Shown here: piece by piece, positions 601 to 62,473 of the stretch | How the letters are laid out: the number at the start of each line of letters is the position of its first letter | How positions within the stretch are numbered: the first letter of the stretch is position 1 | IMG/VR virus record: IMGVR_UViG_3300045988_098382 | Length of the DNA: 64,000 bases | Direction: 5' to 3' (one strand) | DNA from: a virus | Made by a program: the position numbers and the translations under genes | The notes under the pieces: model-generated | The model's input: the letters and a program-made list of their open reading frames with translations, nothing else | Databases searched by the model: none | Told to the model about the DNA's origin: nothing

Positions 601-2370
601 TTAAAAGAGATTTATAGTACCCACACGTCTAGGCACTTGTTCAGTATTAAATTGGGCTATTTTAGTTTTATGTTTCTTATTCTGCTCTTTTATAGTACTA
701 AATATTAATCTACAGAATGTCTTATAATAAATATTATTATTACATTCCATTCCTAAGTATTCGGCAGCTTGATTTAAACCATTAATTCCAATAGTTAAAT
801 ACTGCTTATCAAGATTAATAAAACCGGCATCATAAGCAGCATATAAATGATGGTCTTTACACCAATGCATTAAGTCATTATAAGCATACTGATACAAATA
901 AACTCTTTCAAGAATATTTTCTATATATTTCTTAATTCCTTCTTGGAAGTCTTTATGTGTAATCCAATCTACTGGGAAACAACATTTATTGGTATTAATA
1001 TCAATATGGTCTCTATAATCAGACCAAGTATGTTGCCAATCTTGAATAATTCTGTTTAAATTAAGAGTGATGACATTCTTACTACCAGTCATTACACCTA
1101 TTTGACCATTAGTAGTATTAAATGTATTTTCTTGTACTGCATTTTGTAAACGACAACATGAACTTAAACTATCTACACTACGAGACAAATAAGTAAAGAA
1201 AGAATTTCCTTGAGCATATTCATTGCATATAAAATGGAAAGTATCTAAATCTTTAAAATTACCTTCCTTATCTGTTAAGCAAGCATAACTACATACAGGG
1301 AATGTTAAAATACATTTTAATCTTTCTTGGTTTAACCAATGTAAATAACGTCTTTGTAACCAATTAGTAGAATTCCATTCTGGCTTTGTTCCATCTGGAA
1401 ATACAAATTCTCCAAACATACCTTCAAAGAAATATTTATCAAAGAATGAAAAATTTGTAAATGGAGATTGCATTCCTCTAGCTCCTGCTATTTGATTAAT
1501 GGAATAAGTTACCTGTTGAAAATACTGATCAATTTGACTACCAATAGTTTTTTGTTTTATACAATAGTCTGTAGTTATTTTTACACTTGGTTTGAGATAA
1601 TAATTATTTCCCCATTCTTTTCTACAGAAATAATCCATATACATCAGAAACTCAGGAGTAGCTACTGCTCCTTTAATTTCAGAGGCTAATGCAAAGTTTA
1701 GATTTACATAAATACCACAGAATGAATCAAGATTCTTTGGAACGGCTGATTTACCTCCTAATTTTTCTAATCCAGATAACAAGAAAGGATACATAGAAGC
1801 TGCCATACAATATGGTTCTCCTACTTGAGAAGATGAATCATGAGGATACAAAATAGTTTTAAAATCATTCCTCATAACTTTTATATTAAAGTTAGGATCT
1901 CTCTTCTTTACAAAACTTTCCCACCATTCTGTATTAGTAAGTTTATTATCGACTTTATGTATTTCAGCGTTTAATACTCCAATGCCTTTAGTCCCTACAT
2001 TACTATTATCATCAATAGTAGCATTAGCAGTATTGTCAGACTTTACAAAATTATGAATAAATTCAATATCCCTAGTAGCATGATTTCTAATATCTTCACG
2101 TTCTTTACGATATAGAATATATTTTTTAGCTACGTCGTGGTATCCTAAATCCATTAAGAGTTCTTCAATTTGGTCTTGAATATCCTCAATAGATTGATCT
2201 TCAGTTTCTACTACAGAATTAGTTATCTCAGTAACTGCTCTGTAAGTATCTTCGTCCATTGTTTTACTAAAATTTTGGGTAATTCCAAAAGCTTTTAGTA
2301 CAGCATCTCTAATTTTGTTTCTGTTAAATTCTTCTTTAATTCCGTCTCTCTTTATTACCATAAATAACAT
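601..2370 (-). CDS. nrdD: Anaerobic ribonucleoside-triphosphate reductase (class III RNR, NrdD) with N-terminal ATP-cone. It appears to lack the C-terminal glycyl-radical motif.
   Basis: N-terminal VIKRDGIKEEFNRNKI ATP-cone. Motifs align to T4 NrdD: YPHDSS (like HVHDID), MQSPFTNFSF (like GQTPFVTITF), NVITLNLNRI (like LGVVTLNLPRI). Ends ...PRRVG-TINLF* exactly where RRxCGY is expected. Confidence 0.8.
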   Translation of the reverse strand: MLFMVIKRDGIKEEFNRNKIRDAVLKAFGITQNFSKTMDEDTYRAVTEITNSVVETEDQSIEDIQDQIEELLMDLGYHDVAKKYILYRKEREDIRNHATRDIEFIHNFVKSDNTANATIDDNSNVGTKGIGVLNAEIHKVDNKLTNTEWWESFVKKRDPNFNIKVMRNDFKTILYPHDSSSQVGEPYCMAASMYPFLLSGLEKLGGKSAVPKNLDSFCGIYVNLNFALASEIKGAVATPEFLMYMDYFCRKEWGNNYYLKPSVKITTDYCIKQKTIGSQIDQYFQQVTYSINQIAGARGMQSPFTNFSFFDKYFFEGMFGEFVFPDGTKPEWNSTNWLQRRYLHWLNQERLKCILTFPVCSYACLTDKEGNFKDLDTFHFICNEYAQGNSFFTYLSRSVDSLSSCCRLQNAVQENTFNTTNGQIGVMTGSKNVITLNLNRIIQDWQHTWSDYRDHIDINTNKCCFPVDWITHKDFQEGIKKYIENILERVYLYQYAYNDLMHWCKDHHLYAAYDAGFINLDKQYLTIGINGLNQAAEYLGMECNNNIYYKTFCRLIFSTIKEQNKKHKTKIAQFNTEQVPRRVGTINLF

Positions 2371-9925: not shown

Positions 9926-10936
9926 TTACTTTTTGACATAGTTACTTAATTTTTTTATATAATACTTTATAAATTTTAAAGTATTCTGTCGACCATATTT
10001 TTTATAAAAATCACTTATATCTTTTACTTTGAATTTATGAGGTATAAAGAAATAAAGTAATTCTGGATGATTTCTTCTTATTTTAGCCATATTAAACATT
10101 CCAGGTCTATCATTATCATAAAAAGTTACTATATAAGTAAATCTTTCTTTTAGATCATTTAACATGTTTTCAGATAACCATTGTGTTTCACTATTTGGAG
10201 CACAGGCTGTTACACCTAAACCTTTTAAACACATAGTATCTTTCATACTTTTAGTTATGACTAATAAATTACCTTTTTTAGGTAACTGACTATAACCCTG
10301 AACTTTTTTAGAGGGCCAATTTGTTAGAAATCTATATTCCTTACGTTTAGGATAATAAATTCTCCACAATTCTTTACCTTTCATTGTTCCTCCATAATAT
10401 CCGAAGATAAAGTTATCTTTGGTCTTTATAGTTTGAATATTACCATTTAAAAATACAGTACGACAAGAATATACTTTATATTTATTTAGTAATTCTAAAG
10501 AAACTCCTTGTTTATTCCACCATTTTAATTCATCTTCTGAGAAATCTTTTATTTCTACTCGTATATCTGCTGGCTCGTTTGTTTTAACAAAAGAAGTGCT
10601 TGATTGTATTACAGAATGATAATTATTTTGTCCTTTTAATAAGCCAAAATCTTTAGCTATAATGTCTAATGCTTGATGGTATTTACAAGCATATTTAGTC
10701 ATAACTACAGATATAAAGTTTCCATAAAAACTCCCATTAAAATCATGAAATATAAGTTCTCCTTTAGAGTTACGAAAAAAGGAAGCCGTAGGATTTTTAT
10801 CTTTACGTAAAGGATTACAAATTAATTTTTTTGAAACTTTTACGCCAAGATAATACTCCATATAGGCTTCCTCTGTGTTATATTTAAGTAAGTAGTCCTT
10901 AGTAATATCTGGTTTATAAGAAAAATCTAATTCCAT
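9926..10936 (-). CDS. DnaG-like DNA primase (TOPRIM domain)
   Basis: Degenerate CHC2-like zinc motif CNPLRKDKNPTASF. TOPRIM E...DxD: LVITKSMKDTMCL ... VTFYDNDRPG. Confidence 0.6.
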   Translation of the reverse strand: MELDFSYKPDITKDYLLKYNTEEAYMEYYLGVKVSKKLICNPLRKDKNPTASFFRNSKGELIFHDFNGSFYGNFISVVMTKYACKYHQALDIIAKDFGLLKGQNNYHSVIQSSTSFVKTNEPADIRVEIKDFSEDELKWWNKQGVSLELLNKYKVYSCRTVFLNGNIQTIKTKDNFIFGYYGGTMKGKELWRIYYPKRKEYRFLTNWPSKKVQGYSQLPKKGNLLVITKSMKDTMCLKGLGVTACAPNSETQWLSENMLNDLKERFTYIVTFYDNDRPGMFNMAKIRRNHPELLYFFIPHKFKVKDISDFYKKYGRQNTLKFIKYYIKKLSNYVKK

Positions 10937-20809: not shown

Positions 20810-21619
20810 TTAGATAACCTTAAACATTGTAACATTCTCAGGAAGATTATTCCAGTCTTTATAAGAGTTAGTAAACCATACGTGATTAAAGTTTTCTGAT
20901 AGATTCTTTATACCTTTAGGATTTACCATATGAGTGACTGCGATATTTAAACGCTCTTTAGGAATATTTAGAGCAGTAAATGCTTTAGTAATACCGCAAA
21001 ATGTACCACCACCATCACATAAATCATCAAGAATTAAAAGAGGTTTATCCTGTATATTTTCAGGATTATTTACTTTTATCTCTAAGATTTTTCCAGTAGT
21101 TAAATCCCGAACTTTACTACAAGTAATTGTAGTATTATTATATCGGAATTCATTTCTCTTTTCAGCTCCAGCATCGGGGAAAACTAATTGAAATTCTTTC
21201 CAAGTATTATTAGATGGATTTTTTTCAACGTAGAGAGGCATAAATTTAACTCCGAATTTAGGATCATAATAAACATCAGAATGAGGTTCTAGAATTTCAA
21301 TAGTCTCGGCATTACAATTTTTTAATATATTTAAGACTATTTTTAAAGTAAATGGTCTATTGAAATCCATTACTCTATCCATTCTCATACTCATTAAGTA
21401 ATAGATATTTAGTTTATATAGAACTTCATGTCTATCAAGAATATCTAAAACTTGCATAAGTATAAATAAATCCTCAGCATTAGTAACTCTACATTTAACT
21501 AATACTTGTTCCTTATGACTAAATTCTTCTAATGAAATTTGAACTTCTCCATCAGGAAATCTAGAGATAGAGTATTTAATATCACTATCTTCTAGACGCA
21601 CTAAATTTAATTGTTGCAT
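20810..21619 (-). CDS. Ribose-phosphate pyrophosphokinase-like enzyme (Prs family; possibly an ADP-ribose pyrophosphokinase of the phage NAD-reconstitution pathway)
   Basis: RFPDGE N-terminal motif. PRPP-binding loop LLILDDLCDGGGT (like ILVDDMIDTGGT). Confidence 0.7.
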   Translation of the reverse strand: MQQLNLVRLEDSDIKYSISRFPDGEVQISLEEFSHKEQVLVKCRVTNAEDLFILMQVLDILDRHEVLYKLNIYYLMSMRMDRVMDFNRPFTLKIVLNILKNCNAETIEILEPHSDVYYDPKFGVKFMPLYVEKNPSNNTWKEFQLVFPDAGAEKRNEFRYNNTTITCSKVRDLTTGKILEIKVNNPENIQDKPLLILDDLCDGGGTFCGITKAFTALNIPKERLNIAVTHMVNPKGIKNLSENFNHVWFTNSYKDWNNLPENVTMFKVI

Positions 21620-22101
21620 AATTTATAAATATAAAGAGTTATTGTTGAATCATTAGCAAAAAGTTCTTGGAGCATAGGATAAACTACTCCGTCCCAATCT
21701 CCTCCTGCTAATCCACATCCTAACTTATAAGGAATACCTATCTCTGTAATCTCATTATTTTTACAAAAGTCTTTTAAATCTAATAAAGCTTTTTTAAGAG
21801 CATCATAATCAGTATGCCTATTTTCATAAGGGGCTACTGATTCAGTAAAAGAATATTCTCCAAATAAATTAGCTACGAGATTAATAGGTTTATCCCCTGT
21901 TATACATATTTGACATTTTCCTAATAATTCTTTAGAATATTTAAGAAGTTTACAAAAATTAACATATTGTGTATATACCAAATTCCATTTATTTTTAATA
22001 GATTTAGCTATACCTGCCCCCATTACTCCCAAACAATTAGTTTGATGGGCTATAAGAGGTAAGTTTGATTGGAGTAAATCTCCATTAACAATTTCTATCA
22101 T
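21607..22101 (-). CDS. Macro-domain protein (ADP-ribose binding / hydrolase)
   Basis: IVNGDLLQSNLPLIAHQTNCLGVMGAGIAKSI matches macro-domain motifs (GD, N, G-x-G-[VI]-A). Confidence 0.65.
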   Translation of the reverse strand: MIEIVNGDLLQSNLPLIAHQTNCLGVMGAGIAKSIKNKWNLVYTQYVNFCKLLKYSKELLGKCQICITGDKPINLVANLFGEYSFTESVAPYENRHTDYDALKKALLDLKDFCKNNEITEIGIPYKLGCGLAGGDWDGVVYPMLQELFANDSTITLYIYKLCNN

Positions 22102-23651
22102 ACTAATGTTGAATTTACACGTTCACGAATCTCAGAAAGAGAATATTCTCTTACTAATTCTCCATTTACAAAGATTGTTTTAAGACAACCTTGTAGTTCT
22201 GCATCCTTAGTCTGCTGGTCATAAGCAACATACTTACCATTCTCTTTTTCAACTCTAATAAGACCTTTGAGAGAGTTCTTTGTTCCGTCGTCAGTCTTTG
22301 GATGCTTATAGATTTCTATAAGTCTACCATTAATTATACAAGCAGTTGCTTTAACTGCGAATCCCAAAGAATCACGAGACTTAAACTGATAAGTATAAGA
22401 TCCAATACCAAGAACAAGATTACAAGCTGCCATATGAGCATTCTCTAATCTAGCATAGATATCACGCTGACGTTCTAGAGTAATAGAATCTCCATAGAGC
22501 AAACCTACCTTGGTACTTGGATAACGATAATCATTTATAGTAGTATTCCATCCAAAGATTTTACCTAGCATATAATATGCCCCATAGTACTGACCTTCAG
22601 ATACTTCTACATAATGACTTTCATCATCATCCATAAATGGATTGAAATCACAGTAGTACTTACCTTCTTTCATAGCAGTATGATAGTGAGGATTTGTACG
22701 AAGACCACAAATAATGTCTACTGGATCACCACTATCAGGACGAATTACTACTCGACCATCACGCTTCATAATGTCTGCCTTGAGCTTAGGCAAGAATTTC
22801 TCAACTACCTGCCAGAAATCCCAAGTATCAGATACTATTGAGATAATACCTGTTGGATATAGATCATTAATAAGACGACGAAATGTTTCAATCTCATCAT
22901 CCTCACCTCCTGCACACATTACACTGTGTTCAGTTGCCGGAACAGTTGCAGCTACAAGTTCTTTAGTAACATCTGCATTATAATAATGCTCTACTGCTTC
23001 TATAGCTGGAATTGTTTCACTACCACAGAATGAAGTCATGTGAGCCATACCTGAAATAACAGATGCATCAAGTCCTGCCATACCTCTCATTGAAAAATCG
23101 TGGCAAGAGAAACCTAAATTTACATCTTCTGGGAATCCAGTCTTTTTAGCATGTTCCATAAGTCTCTTCTTATAAAGACGAGCACTTGTTGCAGAAGTAC
23201 AAGGAAGCCATAGAGTACAACTAATTAAAGTTTCCAAATAATTAGTCAACCAGAAGAAATTAGGAAGAGTATTCTTAATAGTCATCATAGGTACTCTTAT
23301 AGGACAAATAGAACCTTCAGGAAGAGCTTTAATTTCAATAGGAAGATATCCTAAATCATAAAGTTCTTCAATATGCTTTGTTCCAACCTGATTAATATCT
23401 ACAAAGTTACCTACACGATAAGCAAATTGCTTAATAGCTTCTTCCTTAGGAATAGCAAACCATTTGTTAAATTCCTCTATCAAATACTTCTTTACAAAAT
23501 ACTGAATACCAAATACTACAGAACCTTCTGTAGCTTCTGGGAAGTAACGATTACTTCTAGGAGTCCAGTTACTATAGACCATTTGTGTACCCTCTGGGTA
23601 CATACGATGATGACCAAGCTTGTAGCCATCAGTTGCATTAATAATTTCCAT
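22098..23651 (-). CDS. Nicotinamide phosphoribosyltransferase-like enzyme (NAMPT/NadV family)
   Basis: 517 aa. DGYKLGHH near the N-terminus, DFSMRG, GDSITLER: hallmark NAMPT-family motifs. Confidence 0.8.
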   Translation of the reverse strand: MEIINATDGYKLGHHRMYPEGTQMVYSNWTPRSNRYFPEATEGSVVFGIQYFVKKYLIEEFNKWFAIPKEEAIKQFAYRVGNFVDINQVGTKHIEELYDLGYLPIEIKALPEGSICPIRVPMMTIKNTLPNFFWLTNYLETLISCTLWLPCTSATSARLYKKRLMEHAKKTGFPEDVNLGFSCHDFSMRGMAGLDASVISGMAHMTSFCGSETIPAIEAVEHYYNADVTKELVAATVPATEHSVMCAGGEDDEIETFRRLINDLYPTGIISIVSDTWDFWQVVEKFLPKLKADIMKRDGRVVIRPDSGDPVDIICGLRTNPHYHTAMKEGKYYCDFNPFMDDDESHYVEVSEGQYYGAYYMLGKIFGWNTTINDYRYPSTKVGLLYGDSITLERQRDIYARLENAHMAACNLVLGIGSYTYQFKSRDSLGFAVKATACIINGRLIEIYKHPKTDDGTKNSLKGLIRVEKENGKYVAYDQQTKDAELQGCLKTIFVNGELVREYSLSEIRERVNSTLV

Positions 23652-31204: not shown

Positions 31205-32758
31205 TTACACATTTACGTTGGTGTTCTCTACGTCGCCATTAACGTTAACATTCTTGTTAACCTTAGCTTCAATAGTGTTAGCCTTCATAATTTCTGCCAT
31301 ATCTACACCTGTGGCATCTTTTACCATGTCACGAGTTTGTTTGATAACAGCAGGTACATTACCTGAAATACCAGAAGCCTCAGTACCATTGGTACCATAA
31401 ACTGTCATACTACCAATCTTACTCATAGGCTCTGCAATATGCTTAGCCATATCAGGAAGAACATCCTTATAAAGATCTGAGATAGTATCAATTATAGCCG
31501 CTGGACCATACTTACTGTAAGCCTCAGCCTTCTTCTGCATAGCTTCAGCCTCTGCAAGACCTTTAGCCTTAACACCTTCAGCTTCTGCTAAAAGCTTAGC
31601 TTTAATACCTGCAGCCTCAGCAGTCATAGTCTGTTGAGTAGCATATGCTTCAGCTTCACCCTTAGCACGAATACCTGCTGCTTCCTGCTCCTGAGAATAA
31701 CGATTAGCTTCAGCTTTAGCTTTTACAGCCTTAGCAGTCTGCTCTGCCTTATAAGCCTCAGCCTCAGCCTCACGCTTCTGCTTCTCCAAAGCTGCCTGAG
31801 CATCAATCTCTGTCTGATACTTATCAGCATCAGCCTTAGCATTTACATCTGCAAGATACTCATTCTGCTTAATCTTAATCTTCTCCTCAGACAAAGTCTG
31901 CTCTTTACGAGTCTTCTCAATATCAGCATCTACAGTCTTGATATTAATAGTCTTCTGTTGCTCCTGCTGCTGAATTTTATATGCAGCATCAGATTCAGCC
32001 TTCTTAATATCAGACAATCTCTTCAGTTCAGCTCTCTTAATAGCTAACTCATTATTACGTTCAGCAATAATGGTATCAGCTTTTACTCGTGCTTCATTAG
32101 CCTCATTGTCAGCTTCAGCCTGAGCCTTAGCTACATCTCTATCAGCATTAGCACGGGTAATTTTAGCATTCTTCTGAATAGCTGCTGTATTATCAGCACC
32201 CAAATCACGGATCAAGCCCTTCTCATCAGTAATATTCTGAATATTGCAAGACAAAATCTCAAGACCTAACTTAGCCATATCAGGAGCTGCCTTCTTCTGA
32301 ATTTCATCAGAGAATGCATCTCTATCAGTGTTAATTTTAATCAAGTCAAGAGAGCCTACTACTTCACGCATATTACCTTCTAAAGAATCTTTCACCTGAG
32401 CAGCAATCTGAACAGAATTCATATTCAAGAAGTTCTTAGCTGCAAGTCTAGTGCCTTCTGTATCAGGTTTTACCCTAACTTTACATACGGCATCTACCAT
32501 TACATCCAAGAAATCATGAGTAGGAACTGGCTGTGAAGTCTTAACATCAACTGTTACTTGACCAAGATATACTTTATCCAATCGTTCAAGTACAGGAATT
32601 TTTACTCCACCATTACCGATAAGTACTCGTGGCTCCTTACGAAAACCTGAAAGAATGTATGCCATCGAAGGAGGAGCTTTAACATACATTGTAGCAATAA
32701 TAACAAGCAGTACAATAATAGCGACTGCGACAACACCAATAAGAACTAAATGTTCCAT
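31205..32758 (-). CDS. Flotillin-like SPFH (band-7) domain protein
   Basis: N-terminal TM (LVLIGVVAVAIIVLLVIIA). SPFH core. Long Ala/Glu/Lys coiled coil (AEAEAYKAEQTAKAVKAKAEA...) typical of flotillin/YqiK. Confidence 0.8.
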   Translation of the reverse strand: MEHLVLIGVVAVAIIVLLVIIATMYVKAPPSMAYILSGFRKEPRVLIGNGGVKIPVLERLDKVYLGQVTVDVKTSQPVPTHDFLDVMVDAVCKVRVKPDTEGTRLAAKNFLNMNSVQIAAQVKDSLEGNMREVVGSLDLIKINTDRDAFSDEIQKKAAPDMAKLGLEILSCNIQNITDEKGLIRDLGADNTAAIQKNAKITRANADRDVAKAQAEADNEANEARVKADTIIAERNNELAIKRAELKRLSDIKKAESDAAYKIQQQEQQKTINIKTVDADIEKTRKEQTLSEEKIKIKQNEYLADVNAKADADKYQTEIDAQAALEKQKREAEAEAYKAEQTAKAVKAKAEANRYSQEQEAAGIRAKGEAEAYATQQTMTAEAAGIKAKLLAEAEGVKAKGLAEAEAMQKKAEAYSKYGPAAIIDTISDLYKDVLPDMAKHIAEPMSKIGSMTVYGTNGTEASGISGNVPAVIKQTRDMVKDATGVDMAEIMKANTIEAKVNKNVNVNGDVENTNVNV

Positions 32759-34955: not shown

Positions 34956-35048
34956 AATTAACAGTTAAAATTAAACAAAAATCCCTGAACTATAATAATA
35001 GCCCAGGGATTAAAAACAAATAATAATAAAAACAGTTCTATGAACTAG

Positions 35049-35377
35049 TGGAGCATTGGAGAGTCGAACTCCAGTCTTGCATATTTGCATCAAAGCATTC
35101 TTACAGCATAGGTTTTAAAGACTATCCTTGTCTTTTAGGGTTGACAGGATTAATATACTGTCAACTTCCACCACTCTGTTCCTAAAGTATACAGAGAACT
35201 TATAGAATTGTCAATGGCGCACCTTTCTGTTCCTAAGCAAGTGCTGCTCGGCTTATTAGGCAGCAGCCTGATAAGCAGGAGTCATATTAATAACTCTAGC
35301 ATTTATTGTTTTGTTGTCTTTCCAACTGTCTTTGCTGTGCTTCTTATCTCCTATACAATCAAAACCACGAATGCCCC
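35049..35377 (-). ncRNA. ssrA: tmRNA (ssrA), phage-encoded
   Basis: 5' GGGGCAU pairs with 3' AUGCUCC, including a G3-U70 wobble (the alanine identity element). 3' T-arm UGGAG-UUCGACU-CUCCA then discriminator A. Internal tag frame ...NMTPAYQAAA followed by UAAUAA double stop, then GCC... as in bacterial tmRNAs. About 329 nt, no protein ORF. Confidence 0.7.
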
Positions 35378-35491
35378 AATTTAAAAAGAGTCCTAAGTTA
35401 GAACTCTTTTATGAATTATACTAATGCAGATAATTGTAATTATCTGGATCTATTCTATTTTCATTACTCATAATTTAAAACTTAATTAATG

Positions 35492-43029: not shown

Positions 43030-43415
43030 ATTACATATTCTTAAAATTAGAAGGATATAGAGGAGTTAAACCTCTTCTTTTGGGGTCAAATCCCAACGTG
43101 ACTGTCGTTACACCAATATCCCTTGTATCTAATAGATAGCACTGTAGTGCTACCATTACACCATAGCCCATTATTAAAACTTTCTATCTTCACAGACCGA
43201 AAGTTTTCTAACTCTTTAACGTTTTTACAATCCGCTGATTGTAATATAATAATTCAAACAATTTCTATGAATTAGTAGCACTAGCGATACTCGAAATCGC
43301 CTTTGGATCTTGAAAGAATCCCGTCCTGACCAGCTAGACGATAGTGCCAAGTAGATTCTCTATCTATCACAGACTAAGAATTCCAAGAAAAAGTAATATT
43401 AAGATAAATTCCATG

Positions 43416-43489
43416 CGCACCCTGTAGGATTCGAACCTACGACTTTCTGACTAATAGCCAGACGTTCTAACCAACTGAACTAAGAGTAC
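43416..43489 (-). tRNA. tRNA with unusual anticodon loop CUAUUAG (formal anticodon AUU; a 1-nt register shift would give UUA)
   Basis: Acceptor GUACUCU/AGGGUGC (two G-U). D GUUC/GAAC. Anticodon stem UCUGG/UCAGA. T-arm GUAGG-UUCGAAU-CCUAC. Confidence 0.5.
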
Positions 43490-43904: not shown

Positions 43905-43990
43905 GAATTTGTACGGTAGAAAGGATTCGAACCAATGACCTTCTCGAAATGACCTATTATAAAAAGAGATGCTCTAACCACTGAGCTACT
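43905..43990 (-). ncRNA. tRNA-like gene with perfect acceptor and D-arm but a 4-bp anticodon stem enclosing a 20-nt loop and a degenerate T-stem
   Basis: Acceptor ACGGUAG/CUACCGU. D GCUC-AGUGGUUA-GAGC. UCUC-(20 nt)-GAGA. T region UGGUUCGAAUCCUUU. Same architecture as 44426..44506. Confidence 0.35.
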
Positions 43991-44050
43991 ACCGTAAGTA
44001 CTAGTTTATATCGGAAAACTAGTAAAACGTTAACACATTATTATGGAAAC

Positions 44051-44425: not shown

Positions 44426-44506
44426 TACGGAGTAAAGGATTCGAACCAGTATAACCTCTCTATGAATTGTGGAAGTGAGGTGCTCTAGCCATTAAGCTAA
44501 CTCCGC
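44426..44506 (-). ncRNA. tRNA-like gene, paralog of 43905..43990 (20-nt expanded anticodon region)
   Basis: Acceptor GCGGAGU/ACUCCGU. D GCUU-AAUGGCUA-GAGC. CCUC-(20 nt)-GAGG. T region UGGUUCGAAUCCUUU. Confidence 0.35.
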
Positions 44507-53323: not shown

Positions 53324-53332
53324 AGATAATAT

Positions 53333-53404
53333 TCTCCTATGGTGTAATGGTTAGCACAGAAGACTCTAAATCTTTTAGTCAGGGTTCGAATCCTTGTGGG
53401 AGAA
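53333..53404 (+). tRNA. Amber suppressor tRNA (anticodon CUA), probably tRNA-Gln-derived
   Basis: Acceptor UCUCCUA/UGGGAGA (U1-A72, one G-U). U8. D-arm GUGU-AAUGGUUA-GCAC. Anticodon stem GAAGA/UCUUU, 7-nt loop CUCUAAA (U33, C34-U35-A36, A37). T-arm CAGGG-UUCGAAU-CCUUG. Discriminator A. Confidence 0.8.
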
Positions 53405-53496
53405 GAATAGTATAAGTAGAAACCTCCACGTGGTGCTATTCGGGTAACGCTAATTCTACTTCAAAACATAACAAAGTTTAAATTTTTAAATAAGAA

Positions 53497-54174
53497 TTGA
53501 ACATGGGTTATATTTATTGTATTACAAATTTAATTAATGAAAAGAAGTATGTTGGAAAAACAACATATTCAGTTACAAAAAGATTCCAAGAACATTGTAG
53601 GGATTCCAAAAAAGAAAGATGTGAAAGAAGACCTCTGTATGATGCTATGAATAAGTATGGTATTGAAAATTTTGTAGTGGAAGAATTAATAGAGTGTCCG
53701 AATGATGAGCTAGATTCATATGAAAAAATGTATATAGAAAAATTACAAACTTACGGACACAATGGCTATAATGCTACTAAAGGTGGAGATGGCTCTATAC
53801 TATTTGATTATGATAAAATTATTGAAACCTACGCGTTAGGAGGTACTATGACTGAATGTGCTGCCAAAATGCATTGTTCAGTAGATACAGTTAAAAAAGT
53901 ATTAACTATTAATAATATTCCTATAAGACATAATCGAAGAGGTTGTTGTTCTGACCCTAAAAAAGTAGAACAATATTCTCTTGAGGGAGTCTTTATAAAA
54001 GAATGGGAAAGTATAACATTAGCTGCTCATTGGTTAGTAGATAATGGTTATGCTAAAACTTATAATAGTGGAGTAAAACAAAAAATAAGATTATGTATGC
54101 GAGGAAAAAATAAAACAGCATATAAATTTATTTGGAAATTTCCTCAAGAAGAACATGATATCAGCAATTTATGA
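53497..54174 (+). CDS. GIY-YIG homing endonuclease
   Basis: N-terminal GYIYCITNLINEKKYVGKTT...RFQEH matches the GIY-(10-11)-YIG core with Arg and Glu. C-terminal basic DNA-binding region. Confidence 0.8.
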   Translation: MNMGYIYCITNLINEKKYVGKTTYSVTKRFQEHCRDSKKERCERRPLYDAMNKYGIENFVVEELIECPNDELDSYEKMYIEKLQTYGHNGYNATKGGDGSILFDYDKIIETYALGGTMTECAAKMHCSVDTVKKVLTINNIPIRHNRRGCCSDPKKVEQYSLEGVFIKEWESITLAAHWLVDNGYAKTYNSGVKQKIRLCMRGKNKTAYKFIWKFPQEEHDISNL

Positions 54175-54677: not shown

Positions 54678-57516
54678 TTTAATGTCCCAACTCCTACAAA
54701 AACTATCTAAAATGGTAAGATCTAGTCTGAGGATAATACTCCCGATTATTCATATTGTTATATATATCTATAAAACCTCCAATAGTGCCTGTACTTACTC
54801 CTATAGGAGTGACATATTTATTCCACTAATACTAAATATTATCAACTTTTCTTTGTGGTATTACAGAAAAATTAGTTTGCCAAGCATGTGTACGACTTTC
54901 CTAAAGTTTTTTATTCCATTTTCTATACTAAGGATATTTATAATAAGCTTTAGTATAATCATACTGAGGCTTAGAAGAATAGACATAATTATTAAGAGGA
55001 CTATATTCTGTAGTCTATTTTACTTTAGGTCCAAACCCACTATACTTTACATATTTACCCCATCTCATAGGAGCAGTATAAGGGTTAATAACTTGATATT
55101 CAGGGAATCCCATGCTTGTATAATCTCTAAAATCAAATCTAGGATTTGAACCTATTTCTAGCATATTAGTAGCTCCTGACTAAGATCCTGAAGAGTAACT
55201 TTTTAATCCGATAGTAGGCTACTACAAAGCACCAAAATACTTACCTCCATTATATGTCTCTCCATAATATCCATTTATATTTAATTTTTTAGCTAACTCT
55301 GTAGTCTATTTGGTACCTTCTTCTATAGATAAAGTACCCTAAGCTACTTTTCTATTAATATCATCAAATAAATAATAATTTGGGTCTGTTCTTTGTAATC
55401 TATTTTTTATAGAATTTACATAATCCTAAAAAGAATTAATGCCAACTCTATTATTTAATATAGCCGTAACATCTCCTCCTAAACCTCCCCTTGAAGAATT
55501 TAATAACTAATTACCTCCAATTCCTGAAGCCTATCCATTAAATGGGGCTACTACGGAACGAAGAGCATTATTTTCTGTAGTAATATCCCATTTTGGAGTA
55601 AATTTAGAAGACCAGAATGCTGTTCTTATTCCCATATTATCTGCTATTAAATTCTAATTAACTATAGATTCTACAGCATCGTCACTATAAACCTATGGAA
55701 TATTCCATCTAGTTCTAGCTTCCTAAATTTCCTAAGGAGTTAACTTTAGTCTAGCCCAATCATTAGTAACAGCATTAGTATTCATTTTCTAGATTCTATT
55801 AGTTAGCCAAGGACTACTAAACATTTGAGCTTGTCTACCTACTTGCTTAGGTTTAAAACCATTATAGTTATCCATAGCTACCATTAAATCATATATTCTA
55901 GGATGTTTCTATAATTGGATATATAATTCTTCAGCTTTTATAGGCAGAGCCTACTCTGTAGTATTAAATACTTGACCTTTCTATATAGCTGTGTTACCTA
56001 GTGATTCCCACTATTTCTATAACTATTTATATTTCTATGGGTATAGTCTAGAATAATAATTATGAGCTAACTATCCTGTAGCATATCCTTTAGCATCTTC
56101 TCCAATAGTCTAAACATCGATTACATGATTACCATCAGAATTAAATACTTTGTTATTACCTTCTAAGGACTATTTAAACCCATTAGATGGTCCATATTGA
56201 GATCCTTTTTTACCAATACTTTTCTAGACTGCTCCTAATCTAGATTTAGTTGTTAGTAACTCTAAGTCATGAGGTACTCCGTTAATAATTCCAGAACCAT
56301 ATAATCTTGTAGAACCTCCAACAATAGCACTACCATTTAGAGTAGTTTCTAAATCTTTTAAATACTAACTTAACTCAGAAATACTTGAAGTAACTTTACC
56401 AGTTTCATAATTTATTTTTGGGCGAATAGTTACTTCTTGTCCATTTAAATTAATAGTTACGCTAGGATCTTTAATCTATTTTAAATTAGTTGCATAATCA
56501 GCGTGCCATTGTTTTCCACTTTTAGCAGTAGCTTTCCAATCAATTCTAGGATTATGAGTTCTAGTGTATGTTATATTTCTATATTCAGATAGAGCATTAG
56601 GATAAGTCGCCTCTAAATCAGACATTTTATTTTGTAGCTACTATTCATAAGCTTCTTTAGATGCAGATCTAGCCTCACCTATACTACTCCAAGTATATTT
56701 TTTATTAATTATATCAGATAATCTTTTAGCGGGTTTCCAAGATTTATAAATTCTATTAATACCATAAGGAGCAAAAGTAAAAGCGGTATTTAATCCAGCA
56801 CTTGCGTAATTTTTATCTTTAATATCGTGGTGTATGTCAGCAAGATTTTGCCCTATAAACATAGCATTACCTATACCTCTAGCAGTAGCACTAGGTAACA
56901 TACTAAGTACCATAGAAGTACCAGTATTTATATCATGTATAGATTTTAATAATCTATAACCTAAAGGAGCATCCCACTAAGAATTATTTACAAGATTTCC
57001 ATTACTATCTTTTAAATACTATCCAGTTTCTAAGTCTTTTAAGAATGGATCTTCTGGATTATAATCTACTGATCTATCAGACTATATATTAGGAGATACT
57101 TTATAAGTACTGCGATAATTAGCCTCAGCCTTATCTCTAGCATTTTTAGCTAGTACTTTACTTCCTGAGGTTTTTGAAGACGCTAACTCAGCAGCATTGC
57201 GCACTTTATTAATATTTATTTTGTGTGCATTATTAAAACCCTAGTTTACTTCCTATTTATTAGTTCCTCCAGTATTTACTAATCTATTTTTTCTATATAT
57301 AGGAGCATAAAATGTTTTTACTCTAGTACTATTATTCTATTCAATATGCTGAGGCACAACTTCTACCTAAGGTCTCTATAATTTTTGAGTTCTCTTCTAA
57401 AGATTTTGAAGATTCTAATATAAAGATTTTACTGAAACACCATTATCTTTAGAATTAAATAAATTTATTCCTCCCCAAGACTATTTATAATTATTATCTT
57501 TTACCTATACAGCCAT
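54678..57516 (-). CDS. Large recoded protein (about 945 aa, more than 40 in-frame TAG codons), probably virion/tail-associated
   Basis: Hand translation from ATGGCUGUAUAG... (M A V Q V K D N N Y K Q S W G G I N L...) down to a UAA at 54678..54680. Contains the fragment the track reports as 56641..56913. TAG is the only in-frame stop. Coordinates approximate. Confidence 0.5.
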
Positions 57517-58638
57517 GGTGTTCTTACTATTACTGGAGTTCCTAATTTATCTAATATTTTTAATCCTAACACAGCTTTACTGTCTAAATCATATAAACTC
57601 CATTTCTACTTATATTCATCAGGATTAAACTTCCAAATATCTTGTGCTCTATATACTTTTTTACCATTAGATATTCCTTCCTAAACTAAATGTCCAGCAG
57701 CATCAACTCCATTATCTCCAAAGTCTAGATTATTATTAGCACCTTTCCAAGGAGTTTTATTAGTTACATTAGAAGCTTTCTACATAGGTCTCTTAGTAAA
57801 GAAATCTAAAGTTTCAGTATTTTCATATACAGGAATATTTTTATATGGGTATATCTTTCTTATATAATTCTCATGCGGACCATAATCTATATTTATTTTC
57901 TTTACTCCATAAGAAGGATTAATAGTTTTATTATATAAATAAGCATCAATCATATCATTACCTTTAGCTGCTTTCTAAAATCCAGTATATGCTTCAGGAG
58001 CATAAGTATTATACCCTATACCAGTTGATATATAAGATAATACTCCAGCATGTTTTTTAGGACTTACTTTATGCATATTATATACTATATCTTCTATAGG
58101 ATTAGCATTATTAGAAGTTCTCATAGCTACTTCTACTCCACGTTTTAAAGGAGCTTTTACAGCATATCCTATTGCAGGAAGTATTAATAAATAATTACTA
58201 GCTTTAGTTGGATTTCTAGATATATCTAAAGCACCTTTAGTATAGTCATATATTGCCTAAGCAGCTGGAGCTAAAGCATAACCTATTCCTGAATTAACTA
58301 ATGCTTTAATAGGACTAGTATTATTATTCCAACTGTCTATTTCTCTAGCATATGCTCCTTTTATAGGATGATTTCTATTCTTATTACTATAATTATATAA
58401 TTTAGAATTAGTATGTCCTCCCCTATTTTATAGTTCCTCTATTATCTACAAATACATCTCGTATACTATTTAAAGTTCTAACTGGAATAACTCTCTACTA
58501 ATATTTAGCACCAAAATATGGAGATTTAAATCTAGGATGACTTAGTCTATTCTAATACTCCATATTTATAGCCATCTATTTATTCCGAGTATTATTATTT
58601 ACTCCCTTGTTTTGTTTACTCTCATCTACTATTGGCAT
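57501..58638 (-). CDS. Recoded protein (about 379 codons) with a frame discontinuity at a GGGG run near 58410
   Basis: Starts MPIVDESKQNKGVNNN... Frame 1 hits UAA just after AAAUAGGGGAGG. A -1 shift in the G-run continues a clean ORF (...GGHTNSKLYNY...GIGYALAPAAQAIYDYTKGALDISRNP...TPWLYR*) with TAG as sense. Confidence 0.4.
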
Positions 58639-58640
58639 AT

Positions 58641-58856
58641 TTATACTTTATTTTTCCATATACTAGTTATACTGTCTATACCTAATAATCCCATACAACA
58701 ATATAAAACTGTATCTACCATATCTGGTGCTTGTATCTAACTAATAGAACAGTATATTAGAATAATTAAACTAACTATCCATCCTAATATTCCACATACT
58801 CTTTTACTACTTATTCCAGTATGTGCTGTTACTAATTTAATTAAAAACTCTTTCAT
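58641..58856 (-). CDS. Holin-like small membrane protein (72 aa, one in-frame TAG)
   Basis: MKEFLIKLVTAHTGISSKRVCGILGWIVSLIILIYCSIS[TAG]IQAPDMVDTVLYCCMGLLGIDSITSIWKNKV: two TM segments. Sits 1.8 kb from the SLT lysin. Confidence 0.45.
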
Positions 58857-59354
58857 TAATTAACTTAGATAACCAACTATAATGTTTTCTATGACTTAGA
58901 TAATCTAAATTACCCTAATTCTAATAAGCTTCTCTTTCAAAGGAGATATTTTTATAAGCTAATTTAGTATCTCTGTACATAATTAATCTAATTAAATATT
59001 CTATTATATACCATAAATAAAAACCTATCCACAATAGTTCCTATCCCTATTTAGTATGTATAGTCTCATGATTTATATCTATCTTATTTAGTATTCTTCT
59101 ACAGAATAGTATGCCAAATAAATTTATACATTTAAAACCTTTTGGAGGTAAGATATTATTAATTATTATTTTCATTGTCTAAGTAATCTAATATTTCAGT
59201 AATAGTATGAGATTCTATTAATAAATAGTTTTCATTTTCTAATTGATCCAAGAGACCTTTTCCAAGTGTGATATACATTTTTAAAACTTTAAATATTTAT
59301 TCCATAACTACTTATCTCTCTCATTTACGAAATCTAAAAATCTTTGTAATTCCT

Positions 59355-59875
59355 CAATCTTTTCTGTCAAAGTATATGTATCCATTATTATTTTTATTAG
59401 GTTTTAAATTAAATCCATTACCTTTAGTTTTAGTAACATACAATGTGGGAAGAACATTAGCCCCATCATAAACTATTTTAGTTCCACCATTATTATAATC
59501 ATAATCGGAGCCTAGATAGTCCATAGTATAATCTAAAGGTTTTCCACTATTAGGTTTTATATATTGATCTTTACTTAAATAATATATCTTATTATCTTTA
59601 CTCCAAGATTTATCTCCTAAATCTGGATAAGTTGCATGTGATTTAGTTTTATAAGTTCCTGAAGCTCCTTCATCAGAAAAATGTCCAGTAGGAATATGTT
59701 TACTCCAATTATGTGCTAAAATACTATTTAACTATAGCCAAGCTACTATAGGTTGGTCATTATAATATTTTCTATAATCATAATGATCTTTAGATAAATC
59801 TTGATTATTCCAGGCTTGAGACAACCACTTACTCCAAGTATTATAATTATATAAAGGCTATTTATTTTTTGTCAT
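59355..59875 (-). CDS. Recoded hypothetical protein (about 173 aa)
   Basis: MTKNK[TAG]PLYNYNTWSKWLSQAWNNQDLSKDHYDYRKYYNDQPIVAWL[TAG]LNSILAHNWSKHIPTGHFSDEG...ends TGA. Start overlaps the upstream stop (AAUGAC). Confidence 0.45.
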
Positions 59876-60662
59876 TATATGTAGATATTCCAAATTTAAT
59901 AAAATCCCCAACATTTCCAGTAAGTCCTAGCATATCTAAAACTAAATCAATTTTAGGATTATGAAATCTAGTTACATCAGAAGCTCCTAAAGTTCCAGCT
60001 ACTCCTAATGTTCCACTAGTAGCATTCCAGGTAGTTTCAAAAGTATTGTTATTTTTAATAGCATCATAAGTCTAATAGCCATCTATTAAAGTACCTCCAA
60101 CCTACATAGGTAATTGGGCTTTCTAAAGAAAATTTGCTACAGCTCTTTTAGTAGCAGAAGTAGCTGTTTCCCATTTTCTCCAATTAGAATAGGCTCCTAA
60201 TATAGAACCTCCTGACAAACCTAATTCTATAGCAGTTAAAGTAGCATCAAGACCATTTTTATAATCTTTCCATTTATCTAATTTTTTTTGTATTTGATTT
60301 TTAATAGCTTGTTCTACTTTAATAGACTAAGAAGTATTTATATCAGCTTGCATTGCATTCTAAATAAAATTAGCTTTTTGCTAAAGATTATTATTAGTAT
60401 TAGGAGTAACTTTTATATTAGAAAATAACTAAGAATCTTTGTTCTAATTTTTTTTCATTCTAAGCTATCCTTCTTTACTATTTATATACTTTTCTCTATT
60501 TTTTATATTTAACTATTTTGTTTTTAACTATTCCTATTTAATACTATCTATATTTTCCTTAGACTATCTAGCTATTCTATCCTAGTAATCTTCTTCTGAT
60601 TCCCAACTTTTCTTTTTTAATGTAGGAGTTGCTCTTACAGGAACTACATTACCACGTTGATA
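59862..60662 (-). CDS. Recoded hypothetical protein (about 266 aa, more than 25 TAG codons), Gln/Lys-rich N-terminus and Gly-rich hydrophobic C-terminus
   Basis: MLKLIPKYQRGNVVPVRATPTLKKKSWESEEDY[TAG]DRIAR[TAG]SKENIDSIK[TAG]... start codon nested in the SLT stop (AAUGCUUAA). Confidence 0.5.
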
Positions 60663-61338
60663 TTTAGGAATTAATTTAAGCATTTCTAAATTTATTTATA
60701 TATTTTGCAACATTAGTACCATTAGCATCAGATCCTCCTGTAATACCATACTTATAATAATTTTTAGCCCATGTTGGATTTAGCCATGATGCTGCTATAG
60801 CTTCTCCAGTAACTGTTATACCATTATTTCTTAAAAATCTTGCATTATCATCATATAATTGTGAAGCAGCTAATACTTGTGCATCAGGGCTATTTTTAAA
60901 TTGTTCTCTAGATAAATTAGAATAACTTTTTCTAGTACTATCTATAAACTAAAAATATCCAGCAGCAGAACTATTTTTAGACTAAGCTTTAGGGTTAAAT
61001 CTTGATTCTAAAGAAGCTATCTTCATTAAAGTAGTTTTCTTGTTTCCAGTGATACCATATTTATCTAAAGTCTACTCTAGTATCTACTTATTTTTACTAG
61101 GAGTATTATGATTTAATTTAAGCTAGGTATATTTATATTGTACAGGCTCTTTAGCTTTGTTAATAGAAAAATATCCATCTAAATTTAAACCATTAATATG
61201 AAAATCTCCAGTATTTAATTCAGGAATAAACTAATATTGCCTAGGAGTAAAATCTAAATCTAAGCCTTTACTTTTTAGTACTTCTGTAGCAGGTTTATCA
61301 GGAATATCTAAAGCTTCATATTTAAAATATTCACTCAT
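60655..61338 (-). CDS. Lytic transglycosylase (SLT domain, family-1 lysozyme-like) encoded with 7 in-frame TAG codons
   Basis: ...MKIASLESRFNPKA[TAG]SKNSSAAGYF[TAG]FIDSTRKSYS... matches the SLT consensus E-S-x-F-N-P-x-A-x-S-x-x-G-A-x-G-L-M-Q-(F/L). The invariant Gln of GLMQ is supplied by a TAG codon. ATGA overlap with the upstream HNH gene. Stop TAA. Confidence 0.75.
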
Positions 61339-61580
61339 AATTTTATTAAACCATTATGTATTTTAGAATGACAATTTTTACAAACACAAACTGTTTGAGA
61401 TAATTCTTTAATAAATAAATCTGTAGGTATGTGACTTACAGCTTGTGATATATTAAATAATTTTTCTCCAATATGATGAAATTCTAAACAACATTTAGCT
61501 GATTCACCACATACTATACATTGTGTTTTATGTTCATTTAAAATCTTTTTATTTTCTTTATAATATTTATTCTTACGCAT
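61335..61580 (-). CDS. Small HNH endonuclease
   Basis: CIVCGESAKCCLEFHHIGEKLFN...CVCKNCHSKIHNG: CxxC + HH...N + CxxCH..H HNH/Zn motif. Standard-code ORF. Confidence 0.6.
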   Translation of the reverse strand: MRKNKYYKENKKILNEHKTQCIVCGESAKCCLEFHHIGEKLFNISQAVSHIPTDLFIKELSQTVCVCKNCHSKIHNGLIKL

Positions 61581-62338
61581 AATTAGAATAATTATTAGGC
61601 TAATTAAAATTAACTAGAGCTAGAGGTCCTAATCCTTGAGTAGCTCTATAATAATTAATTCTTTTCTTCACTCCAGGTCTTGTAAGTAATAAATCTTTTT
61701 TATAGCCATTATAACCTTTTTCGGAGTTATACATATACTTAACATTTTTTTGTATTCCGTTATAATACTACTAAAAATTCTAAGCTTTAAGCGAATCTGG
61801 ATACATTCTACTATGCCAATCAATTAAATGCTATGCAAAAGATTGTGCATTAGGATATTTTTTATTATCTCCAGTAGCAAATCCAGTCCAACCTTTTTCT
61901 GCAACCTTTTGATTAGTTAAATCTAAAGCTGCTTGTGGAGTAACTCCTTTATCTACTAAAGCTTGATATATCTAAGTTACATTGTCATATTGACTTTTAG
62001 TTCCAGGTATCTTACCTGCTAACTACATTTTAAGAATAGTACCTCCATTAGCATGTTTCCATTTAGCAGCATTTCTAGCAAAATTAGCTCGACGTTTTTG
62101 TAAAGGAGTAGCATTAGGATTACTTAATACAGATCTAGCATGTTCCTATACAGATTCTCCAGCTGCTTTAGCTGATGCAGTAAACTTACCCTTATTTTTA
62201 TCTTTTATATGGATAGTATTTTTTCTATCTTTTATCTATCCGCCTTTCTTTAGTTTATTTATAAAACTAAACTGATTTTTAATCTTAAAATCCTAATAGG
62301 CAGAATAAATTCTTTCTTGTAATTCAGAATTAGTCATA
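61571..62338 (-). CDS. Recoded hypothetical protein (about 255 aa, 10 in-frame TAG codons)
   Basis: MTNSELQERIYSAY[TAG]DFKIKN...GESV[TAG]EHARSVLSNPNATPLQKRRANFARNAAKWKHANGGTILKM[TAG]LAGKIPG... ends TAA. No TGA/TAA in frame. Confidence 0.55.
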
Positions 62339-62473
62339 ATGTAATAAATAAGATTAAAATACTTTTGAATATAAATAACCTATATATATACTTAAATAGT
62401 ACAAAATAATAATAACTTTACCTATTAAATATAATAATAATGTTATTATAGATAACATATATATAAATATTAC

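Follow-up and report, generated by a model that had tools for sequence, protein, structure and literature searches.

Transfer-messenger RNA (tmRNA), the product of ssrA, has already been described in phages. Huge phages were reported to have tmRNAs and SmpB as part of their set of translation genes (Al-Shayeb et al. 2020, PMC7162821), and ssrA was found in 402 of 18,146 phage genomes (2.3%), in 133 distinct structures, together with a discussion of its possible roles (Buchholz et al., PMC9004378); the OM43 phage Melnitz carries a two-piece tmRNA (PMC9004378). A tmRNA database paper of 2025 described group I introns at four subsites of the T loop, one of which, subsite 3, was seen solely in Bacteroidia, as well as tag-less tmRNAs of about 65 nt, including those of mycobacteriophage DS6A and of some plastids (PMC11915505). 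Here we analysed the IMG/VR virus record IMGVR_UViG_3300045988_098382, a stretch of 64,000 nt (hereafter the window, meaning this whole stretch), for which a first-pass annotation, made from the letters, had proposed a phage-encoded tmRNA gene at 35049-35377 and had called such genes rare in phages. The rarity agrees with the 2.3% reported above; phage tmRNAs are known already, those of huge phages included, and the window gene is a further, well-supported example. A limited literature search returned no paper that linked a tmRNA to stop-codon-recoded or crAss-like phages. From the comparative evidence given below, we consider it likely that the locus is a functional one-piece tmRNA gene of a human-gut phage lineage, the product of which would most likely raise the ribosome-rescue capacity of the infected cell.

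Like the bacterial one-piece tmRNAs represented by the Rfam family RF00023, especially those of Bacteroidota, the window gene has a domain resembling tRNA-Ala, in which G3·U70, A73 and a T loop of the UUCGA type are present. Helix 2, the bases U-A at positions -5/-4 from the resume codon, a short tag with Ala-Ala as its last residues and a stop codon in helix H5 are shared too, and candidate pseudoknot-like modules can be drawn downstream. It differs from them in being encoded by a phage with no smpB found in the DNA searched (the window and about 171 kb of its closest relative), in having a hairpin in place of the first pseudoknot (PK1), in an AT-rich body that scores near the Rfam threshold, and in its tag, ARVINMTPAYQAAA, which is longer and ends in QAAA. 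With the known phage tmRNAs (huge phages, Melnitz) it shares the setting, namely a full ssrA gene in a large, lytic-looking, tRNA-rich genome with translation-related genes, and the role proposed, i.e. the upkeep of the hijacked translation machinery. In contrast to them, it is one-piece and has no riboswitch, no SmpB was found in the same DNA whereas some huge phages carry it, and the lineage is a TAG-recoded one from the human gut. Unlike the tag-less tmRNA of DS6A, it is 329 nt long with a full, conserved tag frame and body; the forms that resemble the DS6A RNA, reduced to acceptor and T arm (~58-77 nt), are in related contigs (L012/L016 and L113, see below). The hairpin for PK1, the divergent tag and a variable tRNA-like domain (TLD) on a constant body are the mildly unusual features of this lineage.

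The gene lies in one piece on the minus strand and runs from 35377 to 35049, as indicated by the sequence, by RF00023 and by ARAGORN at relaxed settings. Both ends of the first-pass annotation are exact, since the mature tmRNA (35049-35377, minus strand) has its G1 at 35377 and its discriminator A at 35049, in agreement with RF00023, ARAGORN and about 90 homologous loci. Read on the minus strand, the 5' start from 35377 is GGGGCAUUCGUGGUUUUGA and the 3' end, to 35049, is GACUGGAGUUCGACUCUCCAAUGCUCCA. The bases directly after the discriminator A are CUA (35048-35046), hence CCA is not encoded, which is normal for this genome because CCA is encoded in 0 of the 18 tRNAs of the window. RF00023 matched 35046-35377 (minus strand) over model positions 1-374 with 48.1 bits against a gathering score of 47 (E-value 6e-16, a value for the whole window), with an alignment confidence that is high at both ends and low in the middle; the covariance-model check proposed in the first-pass annotation thus gave a full-length match above the gathering score. 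The ARAGORN check, proposed along with it, failed at default settings, with which the window tmRNA was not called, and succeeded with the options -ps and the threshold lowered to 95%, giving the same ends, the resume codon GCU and the tag ARVINMTPAYQAAA followed by two stops. By themselves, RF00023 and ARAGORN amount to a borderline call, and it is the comparative evidence that decides. The gap had also been described as free of open reading frames (ORFs), which is true for the strand of the tmRNA; on the plus strand there are two mechanical ORFs of 45 and 58 aa, antisense to the tmRNA and unsupported.

Among deposited phage genomes, blastn returned one homologue, with 87.5% identity, in MT835492.1, a 121-kb unannotated scaffold from human faeces that is collinear with positions 1-36.6 kb of the window; a second scaffold, MT835539.1, is collinear with the window from 39.5 kb onward. 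In IMG/VR, exact-word scans for both ends of the gene and for its conserved core identified 37 loci that have it, on contigs up to 190 kb in length; in metagenome assemblies, a 27-nt core picked up 54 further contigs, mostly labelled human gut, up to 242 kb in length and with a coverage of up to 814×. Some of the latter duplicate IMG/VR contigs, so that we considered the family to comprise about 90 loci. The tmRNA is directly upstream of the gene for a 285-aa protein in 3 of the 5 contigs encoding that protein, as it is in the window. An exact search with the 27-nt core and with 25 nt of the T-arm/acceptor region gave no matches in 185,579 bacterial and archaeal species genomes (one genome for each species). 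Since the hits were confined to viral-type contigs and none was in a species genome, the gene would be neither a host gene nor part of a prophage of a sequenced species; the lack of any bacterial or archaeal copy of the conserved body or of the T-arm/acceptor region argues for an old, phage-resident lineage.

ARAGORN with default settings called 14 of the 31 family members, in the same frames. It missed the window allele, the alleles L052, L046 and L021 (which belong to class B of the TLD classes described below and have the AAAU-GCU resume context of the window), all the alleles of class C, L051, the truncated L018 and the intron-containing forms. ARAGORN with default settings is part of common phage annotation pipelines. 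As it misses the window allele and all those of class C, the frequency of tmRNAs in gut phages is probably underestimated.

The TLD of the window gene consists of a 7-bp acceptor stem, a 5-bp T stem and a 7-nt loop of the UUCGA type, with the anticodon arm absent. Precisely, the acceptor 5' strand GGGGCAU (35371-35377, with G3 at 35375) pairs with AUGCUCC (35050-35056, with U70 at 35052), which is followed by the discriminator A at 35049, and the T arm UGGAG-UUCGACU-CUCCA occupies 35057-35073, all on the minus strand. These stems, the G3·U70 pair and the reading frame ending in Ala-Ala-Ala UAA UAA had been read off by the first-pass annotation, and all of them are in the sequence. In the complete copies of the family, by which we mean the 82 intron-less ones (52 distinct sequences), all pairs of the 7-bp acceptor stem and of the 5-bp T stem are standard ones, and none of the copies has lost G3·U70 (82/82); G3·U70 and the discriminator A73 are invariant in 28 of 28 distinct sequences. 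The stems themselves are found in three versions. Class A, to which the window belongs, has the acceptor GGGGCAU/AUGCUCC and the T stem UGGAG/CUCCA, class B has GGGGAUG/CAUCUCC and AGGGG/CCCCU (GAGGG/CCCUC in L051), and class C has GGGGCUA/UAGCUCC and GACGG/CCGUC. It follows from the three versions that acceptor positions 5-7 and four of the five T-stem pairs change on both sides.

Helix 2, a long and interrupted helix that connects the TLD with the body, behaves in the same way. Its segment 2a is formed by UUGUAUA (35352-35358, minus strand) with UAUGCAA (35077-35083), and the segments 2b and 2c by GAAGC and CAGC (35334-35343, minus strand) with GCUUU (35092-35096) and GCUG (35104-35107), respectively. 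Helix 2a is found as UUGUAUA/UAUGCAA, ACUUCGA/UCGGAGU, UUGUCUA/UAGGCAA and UUGCAUA/UAUGUAA, so that 5 of its 7 pairs change on both sides, and in helix 2b one A-U pair is replaced by G-C, the remaining pairs of 2b and 2c being invariant; over the three segments 100% of the cells pair, with six pairs changed on both sides. For the whole proposed structure the pairing was counted over 26 distinct homologues, the distinct rows of the MAFFT alignment A2. In this case, 97.4% of the cells pair, and sliding the 3' partners by 1-3 columns lowers this to 39-43%; there are ten pairs with changes on both sides, and the covariation score is 0.175 against 0.02-0.045 in the slid versions, a value reached by 0 of 500 shuffles. 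The acceptor stem was counted from end-anchored positions because A2 misregisters its 5' strand between the TLD classes. A minimum free energy (MFE) fold computed from the window tmRNA by itself has a z-score of -2.7 and contains the acceptor stem and T arm, helices 2a-c and stem 1 of both the third and the fourth candidate pseudoknot (PK3 and PK4), and the hairpin at the PK1 position is in the centroid structure. Taken with the evolution of the tag and of helix H5, to which we come below, the full pairing of the stems and the compensatory changes argue for purifying selection on both structure and coding. The observation of the first-pass annotation is confirmed, and its reading of the gene as a phage tmRNA has the support of the covariance model, of ARAGORN at relaxed settings and of the covariation seen over a large family.

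The tag frame spans 35253-35300 (minus strand), from the resume codon GCU at 35300-35298 to the stops UAA UAA at 35258-35253, as predicted by ARAGORN and as indicated by in-frame variants in the relatives. It reads GCU AGA GUU AUU AAU AUG ACU CCU GCU UAU CAG GCU GCU GCC UAA UAA, i.e. 14 codons for ARVINMTPAYQAAA and then two stops. Ahead of the resume codon, U(-5) and A(-4) are present in every variant (..UAAAU|GCU, ..UAAUC|GCU and ..UAAUU|GGC); their counterpart in E. coli is U85-A86 ahead of G90, of which A86 is essential for activity and for the choice of frame (PMC2481249). The tags form the families ARVINMTPAYQAAA (window), ARVINMTPVSYAIAA, GEVNNTS(V/A)SYAIAA, GRVNNSSVSYAVAA and ARVINMTPAT(T)AVAIAA / ARVINMTPATTVAIAA; an example of a relative's tag ending in SYAIAA is GEVNNTSVSYAIAA. 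All the variants end in Ala-Ala and differ by in-frame substitutions and by one 3-nt indel, and the stop codon is either UAA or UGA, UAG being used in 0 of the 82 complete copies. Each TLD class was found with each of the main tag families (QAAA, VSYAIAA and GEVNN...SYAIAA) among these copies, which implies that the alleles recombine. The TLD is therefore a domain in three interchangeable versions, attached to a pseudoknot body that is nearly invariant. Bacterial tmRNAs usually show the opposite pattern of conservation.

Helix H5 (35251-35277, minus strand), formed by GCUUAU/AUAAGC around AGGC-UGCU-GCCU, forms in every tag variant and has the stop codons in its 3' strand, so that the second UAA of the window's double ochre is within the stem. 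Relatives have the compensatory versions GUUUCUUA/UAAGAAAC, GCUUCUUA/UAAGAAGC and GCUUCUUA/UGAGAAGC; in particular, a change of a tag codon from Val to Ala (GUU to GCU) is matched by a change from AAAC to AAGC 3' of the stop. A different H5, UGCUGC/GCAGCA (RNA positions 113-118 and 131-136), was tried and rejected, as it has one pair broken in 15 of 29 sequences and clashes with stem 1 of the second pseudoknot (PK2).

The first-pass annotation had proposed to look for the pseudoknots PK1-PK4, of which PK1 was found only as a hairpin with no second stem, and PK2-PK4 could be drawn as candidates. PK1, which most one-piece tmRNAs have although it is neither universal nor strictly defining, lies between helix 2 and the resume codon; at its usual site there is here the hairpin GUUG-GAAAGA-CAAC (35313-35326, minus strand), which RF00023 aligns as one PK1 stem with 4 nt between the strands; in one clade it is ACUUG-GAUAGA-CAAGU, i.e. 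a G-C to C-G swap and an added A-U pair. For the second stem of PK1, we looked for a sequence able to pair with the loop GAAAGA or with the AAGAC beside it, and none was found at a usable position. Candidate PK2 (35219-35249, minus strand; stem 1 GAGCA/UGCUU, stem 2 GCAC/GUGC) is invariant in 26 sequences, with two compensatory pairs in stem 1 solely in the divergent, truncated homologue L018. Candidate PK3 (35164-35196, minus strand; stem 1 CUCUGU/ACAGAG, stem 2 ACUUU/GAAGU) is invariant as well, and its stem 1 is in the MFE fold. Candidate PK4 (35117-35165, minus strand) pairs GUUGACAG/CUGUCAAC and the loop AUCC with GGAU, is accompanied by the hairpin AAAGAC/GUCUUU, has a local fold z-score of -3.3, and has one-sided changes only, between G-U and A-U. 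In these H-type candidates 93-100% of the cells pair and 4-6 stems never vary; since PK2-PK4 are almost invariant in the clade, covariation neither supports nor refutes them. One-piece tmRNAs typically have a ring of PK2-PK4, which E. coli can do without.

Some members of the family depart from this organization. In L019 (9562-10770, plus strand) and in the truncated L029, the tmRNA is split after nucleotide 2 of the T loop, GGAGUU | CGACUCUCC, by a group I intron, which in L019 is 867 nt long (RF00028, 85.9 bits), has a U at -1 and a terminal G, and bears a 209-aa ORF on the opposite strand (10044-10673). The site of insertion is T-loop subsite 3, the one reported from the class Bacteroidia only (PMC11915505); these homologues therefore match the tmRNA genes of intron form, whereas the window copy is intron-free. 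Class C makes up about one third of the family (L001, which is MT835492.1 4017-4349, and 31 further loci). Its T arm is GACGG-GGCAGUA-CCGUC, with the UUCGA motif absent, and its D region AACUAGUAUUUGA has no GG, although the stems pair perfectly. Copies of this class were called by neither Rfam nor ARAGORN, and they may be alleles resistant to the homing endonuclease of the intron. L051 (6897-7359, minus strand) has about 150 extra, G+C-richer nt after PK2 and scores 65.1 bits with RF00023, above the window copy; it may be either a more ancestral form or an insertion.

Two 6.5-kb, G+C-richer viral contigs, L012 (4401-4474) and L016, have a 74-nt element consisting of the TLD only (GGGGCAUGAUUGGCUCGAUAG...UGGAGUUCGACUCUCCAAUGCUCCA), the last 28 nt of which are identical to the 3' end of the window tmRNA, 4 nt ahead of a tRNA-Tyr gene. 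At the syntenic site upstream of the homologue of the 285-aa gene, L113 (2901-2952) has a minihelix of about 52-58 nt, GGAGUAU...UGGAG-UUCGACU-CUCCA-AUACUCC-A, with body and tag deleted, in which the pair 3:70 is A-U and the pair 5:68 is compensated to U-A.

As for the protein partner of tmRNA, tblastn with the SmpB sequences of E. coli and B. subtilis gave only a chance-level match of 18 aa (E 5.2) in the window, and neither MT835492.1 (121 kb) nor the initial 50 kb of MT835539.1 had a match with E≤1. The queries were validated by matches of 1e-21 to 4e-33 in the unrelated loci L063 and L078, and the search covered the window and about 171 kb of its closest relative; a very divergent SmpB could escape it. 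Since smpB was not found in the DNA searched, the phage very probably relies on the SmpB of the host. The first-pass annotation had spoken of a private trans-translation system, a claim that is not established, as no smpB was found in the window or in about 171 kb of the closest relative, and SmpB, alanyl-tRNA synthetase (AlaRS) and EF-Tu would all have to come from the host. The rescue of ribosomes at unsuppressed TAGs or at RNAs cleaved by the host, which it had also proposed, would be plausible.

We infer that this host belongs to the Bacteroidota, from the tags with Gly-Glu...YAIAA, the subsite of the intron and the similarity of the tRNAs to those of Prevotella Lak phages. The native Bacteroides tag is GETNYALAA (bioRxiv 10.1101/2025.03.18.644028). 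Many of the relatives' tags resemble it in starting with Gly-Glu (GGC-GAA) and ending in YAIAA, as GEVNNTS[V/A]SYAIAA does with its Gly-Glu start and its YA-I-AA end, which fits both a Bacteroidota origin and a Bacteroidota host. The window tag is the most divergent of the lineage, longer than that of Bacteroides and ending in QAAA. In the comparison with host tags, suggested in the first-pass annotation, the window's ...YQAAA thus differs from the Bacteroides tag, and the tags of many of its relatives resemble it.

The window has a G+C content of 30%. Its first 53 kb (1-53 kb) consist of dense minus-strand genes in the standard code, including those for NrdD, a primase, helicases, nicotinamide phosphoribosyltransferase (NAMPT), phosphoribosyl pyrophosphate (PRPP) synthetase, an SPFH/flotillin-like protein and an AAA ATPase, and hold 16 of the 18 tRNAs called by ARAGORN. 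The tmRNA is within this block, presumably an early/middle one, on the same strand and among tRNA genes. Upstream, a hairpin with a T run (AAAAGAGUUCUAACUUAGGACUCUUUUU; 35383-35410, minus strand) ends 5 nt before G1 and is kept in relatives; it probably either terminates the gene upstream or belongs to the 5' leader. A second, terminator-like hairpin with a T run (34980-35011, minus strand) lies about 35 nt past the 3' end of the tmRNA. A scan for sigma-70 promoters gave 7 sites against 7.2 expected, the best of them inside the RNA, with Bacteroidota promoters being outside the scope of the scan. The flanking proteins of 285 aa and 109 aa have no Pfam or PHROG match, and the 677-aa neighbour belongs to phrog_1735, with homologues at just 36-42% identity in diverse large phages.

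That this genome reprograms termination, as the first-pass annotation had stated, is correct. At 54679-62391 (minus strand) there is a block in which the ORFs require TAG read-through to stay open, with 47 in-frame TAGs in one ORF of 955 codons, 5-14 in the other long ORFs of the block, and up to 5% in late ORFs; one of these (60676-61353), translated with TAG as Gln, has matches among the transglycosylase and virion-lysin PHROGs. Where the standard block meets the recoded one, on the strand opposite to both, ARAGORN predicts an amber-suppressor type tRNA(CUA) (53332-53405, plus strand), directly followed by a GIY-YIG-type homing endonuclease gene (53503-54174, plus strand). The lineage is that of a large human-gut phage, of about 170-190 kb, that recodes TAG in its late block.

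Some further tRNA-like matches were noted in the window. A tRNA of 85 nt with anticodon UUA (43911-43995, minus strand; Rfam tRNA, 53.2 bits) has a mismatch in the anticodon stem and may contain an intron or have a long variable arm; should it be active in ochre suppression, the stops of the tmRNA tag would be among those it reads, along with 41 of 62 gene stops. There are also a tRNA with the unusual anticodon AUU (Asn box; 43415-43489, minus strand) and an extra Rfam tRNA match (44426-44506, minus strand; 43.7 bits) not called by ARAGORN. The auxiliary genes include nicotinamide phosphoribosyltransferase and ribose-phosphate pyrophosphokinase, for NAD salvage (20810-23651, minus strand), an NrdD-like anaerobic ribonucleotide reductase (601-2370, minus strand) and an SPFH/flotillin-domain protein (31205-32758, minus strand).

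From the established trans-translation pathway (PMC3968760) we infer how the RNA would work in the infected cell. The transcript would be trimmed, with RNase P cutting at G1 and with CCA added as for all 18 phage tRNAs, and host AlaRS would charge it with alanine by means of G3·U70 and A73. Host SmpB and EF-Tu would carry it to ribosomes stalled with an empty A site, where the nascent chain would be passed to the alanine, the 14 tag codons would be translated and the ribosome would be freed after stopping at UAA.

Several points weigh against this interpretation. The RF00023 score is just 1 bit over the gathering score, with the body aligned at low confidence, and the window allele is missed by default ARAGORN. 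PK1 appears to be absent, being replaced by a conserved hairpin of 4-5 bp, and PK2-PK4 are, in the sequences compared, nearly without covariation support. The first of these two points is no argument against function, since E. coli tmRNA still tags after a stable hairpin has been substituted for PK1 (Tanner et al. 2006, reviewed in PMC3968760). Furthermore, function would hang on the fit with the SmpB of the host, no phage smpB having been found in the DNA searched, and the ending ...YQAAA is unlike Bacteroides GETNYALAA, so that the degradation signal may be weaker, or there may be none. As for any relation with recoding, the sole tie is the co-occurrence of the two in one lineage, and the absence of UAG tag stops rests on very few independent events, in a context in which UAG ends only 6 of the 62 ORFs of the standard-code block.

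With regard to the selective reason for keeping the gene, the simplest view would be a gain in rescue capacity while mRNAs are degraded and translation is reprogrammed in the infected cell. It is possible, and we put it forward tentatively, that the main one is a rescue demand raised by amber read-through to mRNA ends or by host nucleases cutting mRNA. The link with recoding is attractive because read-through of TAG stops yields non-stop complexes. In E. coli recoded and deleted for RF1, unassigned UAG codons are partly resolved by tmRNA, and the tagging blocks UAG-containing viruses (PMC6207430); this last result also suggests the opposite possibility, namely a phage RNA that competes to protect TAG-rich late proteins. 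The count of 0/82 UAG tag stops fits both a helper and a competitor. A broader proposal, in which the tmRNA would be part of a code-switch toolkit, either clearing the stalls that follow from read-through of TAG-terminated host and early-phage messages and from pauses at TAG-dense late genes, or outcompeting the host tmRNA, by which the late proteins would otherwise be tagged and destroyed, with the rapid swapping of TLDs and tags reflecting an arms race with host factors or homing endonucleases, seems to us unlikely.

We consider improbable that the phage tmRNA acts mainly as an antagonist, competing for SmpB and stalled ribosomes and adding a poorly degraded ...YQAAA tag, by which TAG-rich late proteins would be spared or host quality control blocked. 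In its favour, it is tagging and degradation at unassigned UAG that blocks UAG-containing viruses in recoded E. coli (PMC6207430), the late ORFs of the window phage have up to 5% in-frame TAG, and the window tag ends in QAAA and not in the terminal LAA read by E. coli ClpX (PMC3968760). The tag-less tmRNA of mycobacteriophage DS6A inhibits host tmRNA (PMC11915505), and TLD-only derivatives are present in related contigs. However, the tags of most relatives end in ...SYAIAA, near the Bacteroides degradation signal ...NYALAA, hence degron-like endings are not avoided across the lineage, and a pure decoy would need neither the tag frame nor H5 nor the U-A bases, yet all of these are maintained.

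It is very improbable that the gene is a decaying or selfish passenger, i.e. a Bacteroidota tmRNA once captured and then kept by linkage, recombination and the traffic of introns and homing endonucleases, with no role in infection. Such a fate could account for the deletion that left the L113 minihelix, the group I intron of L019/L029, the 150-nt insertion of L051, the GGCAGUA T loop of one third of the copies and the marginal RF00023 score. Decay is difficult to reconcile with 82 of 82 complete copies having intact acceptor and T stems and G3·U70 across three different stem sequences, with the many compensatory changes, the in-frame evolution of the tag and the covariation of H5, and with the lack of a copy in the 185,579 species genomes. 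Nor is the intron a sign of a dead gene, as live bacterial tmRNA genes carry T-loop introns too (PMC11915505). Finally, we see next to no chance that the locus is what remains of an attachment site, i.e. part of the host ssrA kept by a phage that integrates into the host tmRNA gene, because, although integration into tmRNA genes is common and the 3' ends of these genes are found on integrative elements (PMC11915505, PMC9004378), the gene is complete, with a 5' end, tag and body of its own, an integrase is absent among ten neighbouring proteins, and the 25-nt and 27-nt sequences, without a match in any of the species genomes, leave no matching attB.

A functional tmRNA that raises the ribosome-rescue capacity of the infected cell, the interpretation we prefer, adds a widespread human-gut lineage to the small set of tmRNA-carrying phages, and this lineage also recodes TAG. 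The tag peptides, e.g. ...VINMTPAYQAAA, are concrete targets in metaproteomes. If recoding and the tmRNA are linked, the lineage would be a natural system for a virus coping with stalling and host quality control, which has been studied so far only in engineered E. coli.

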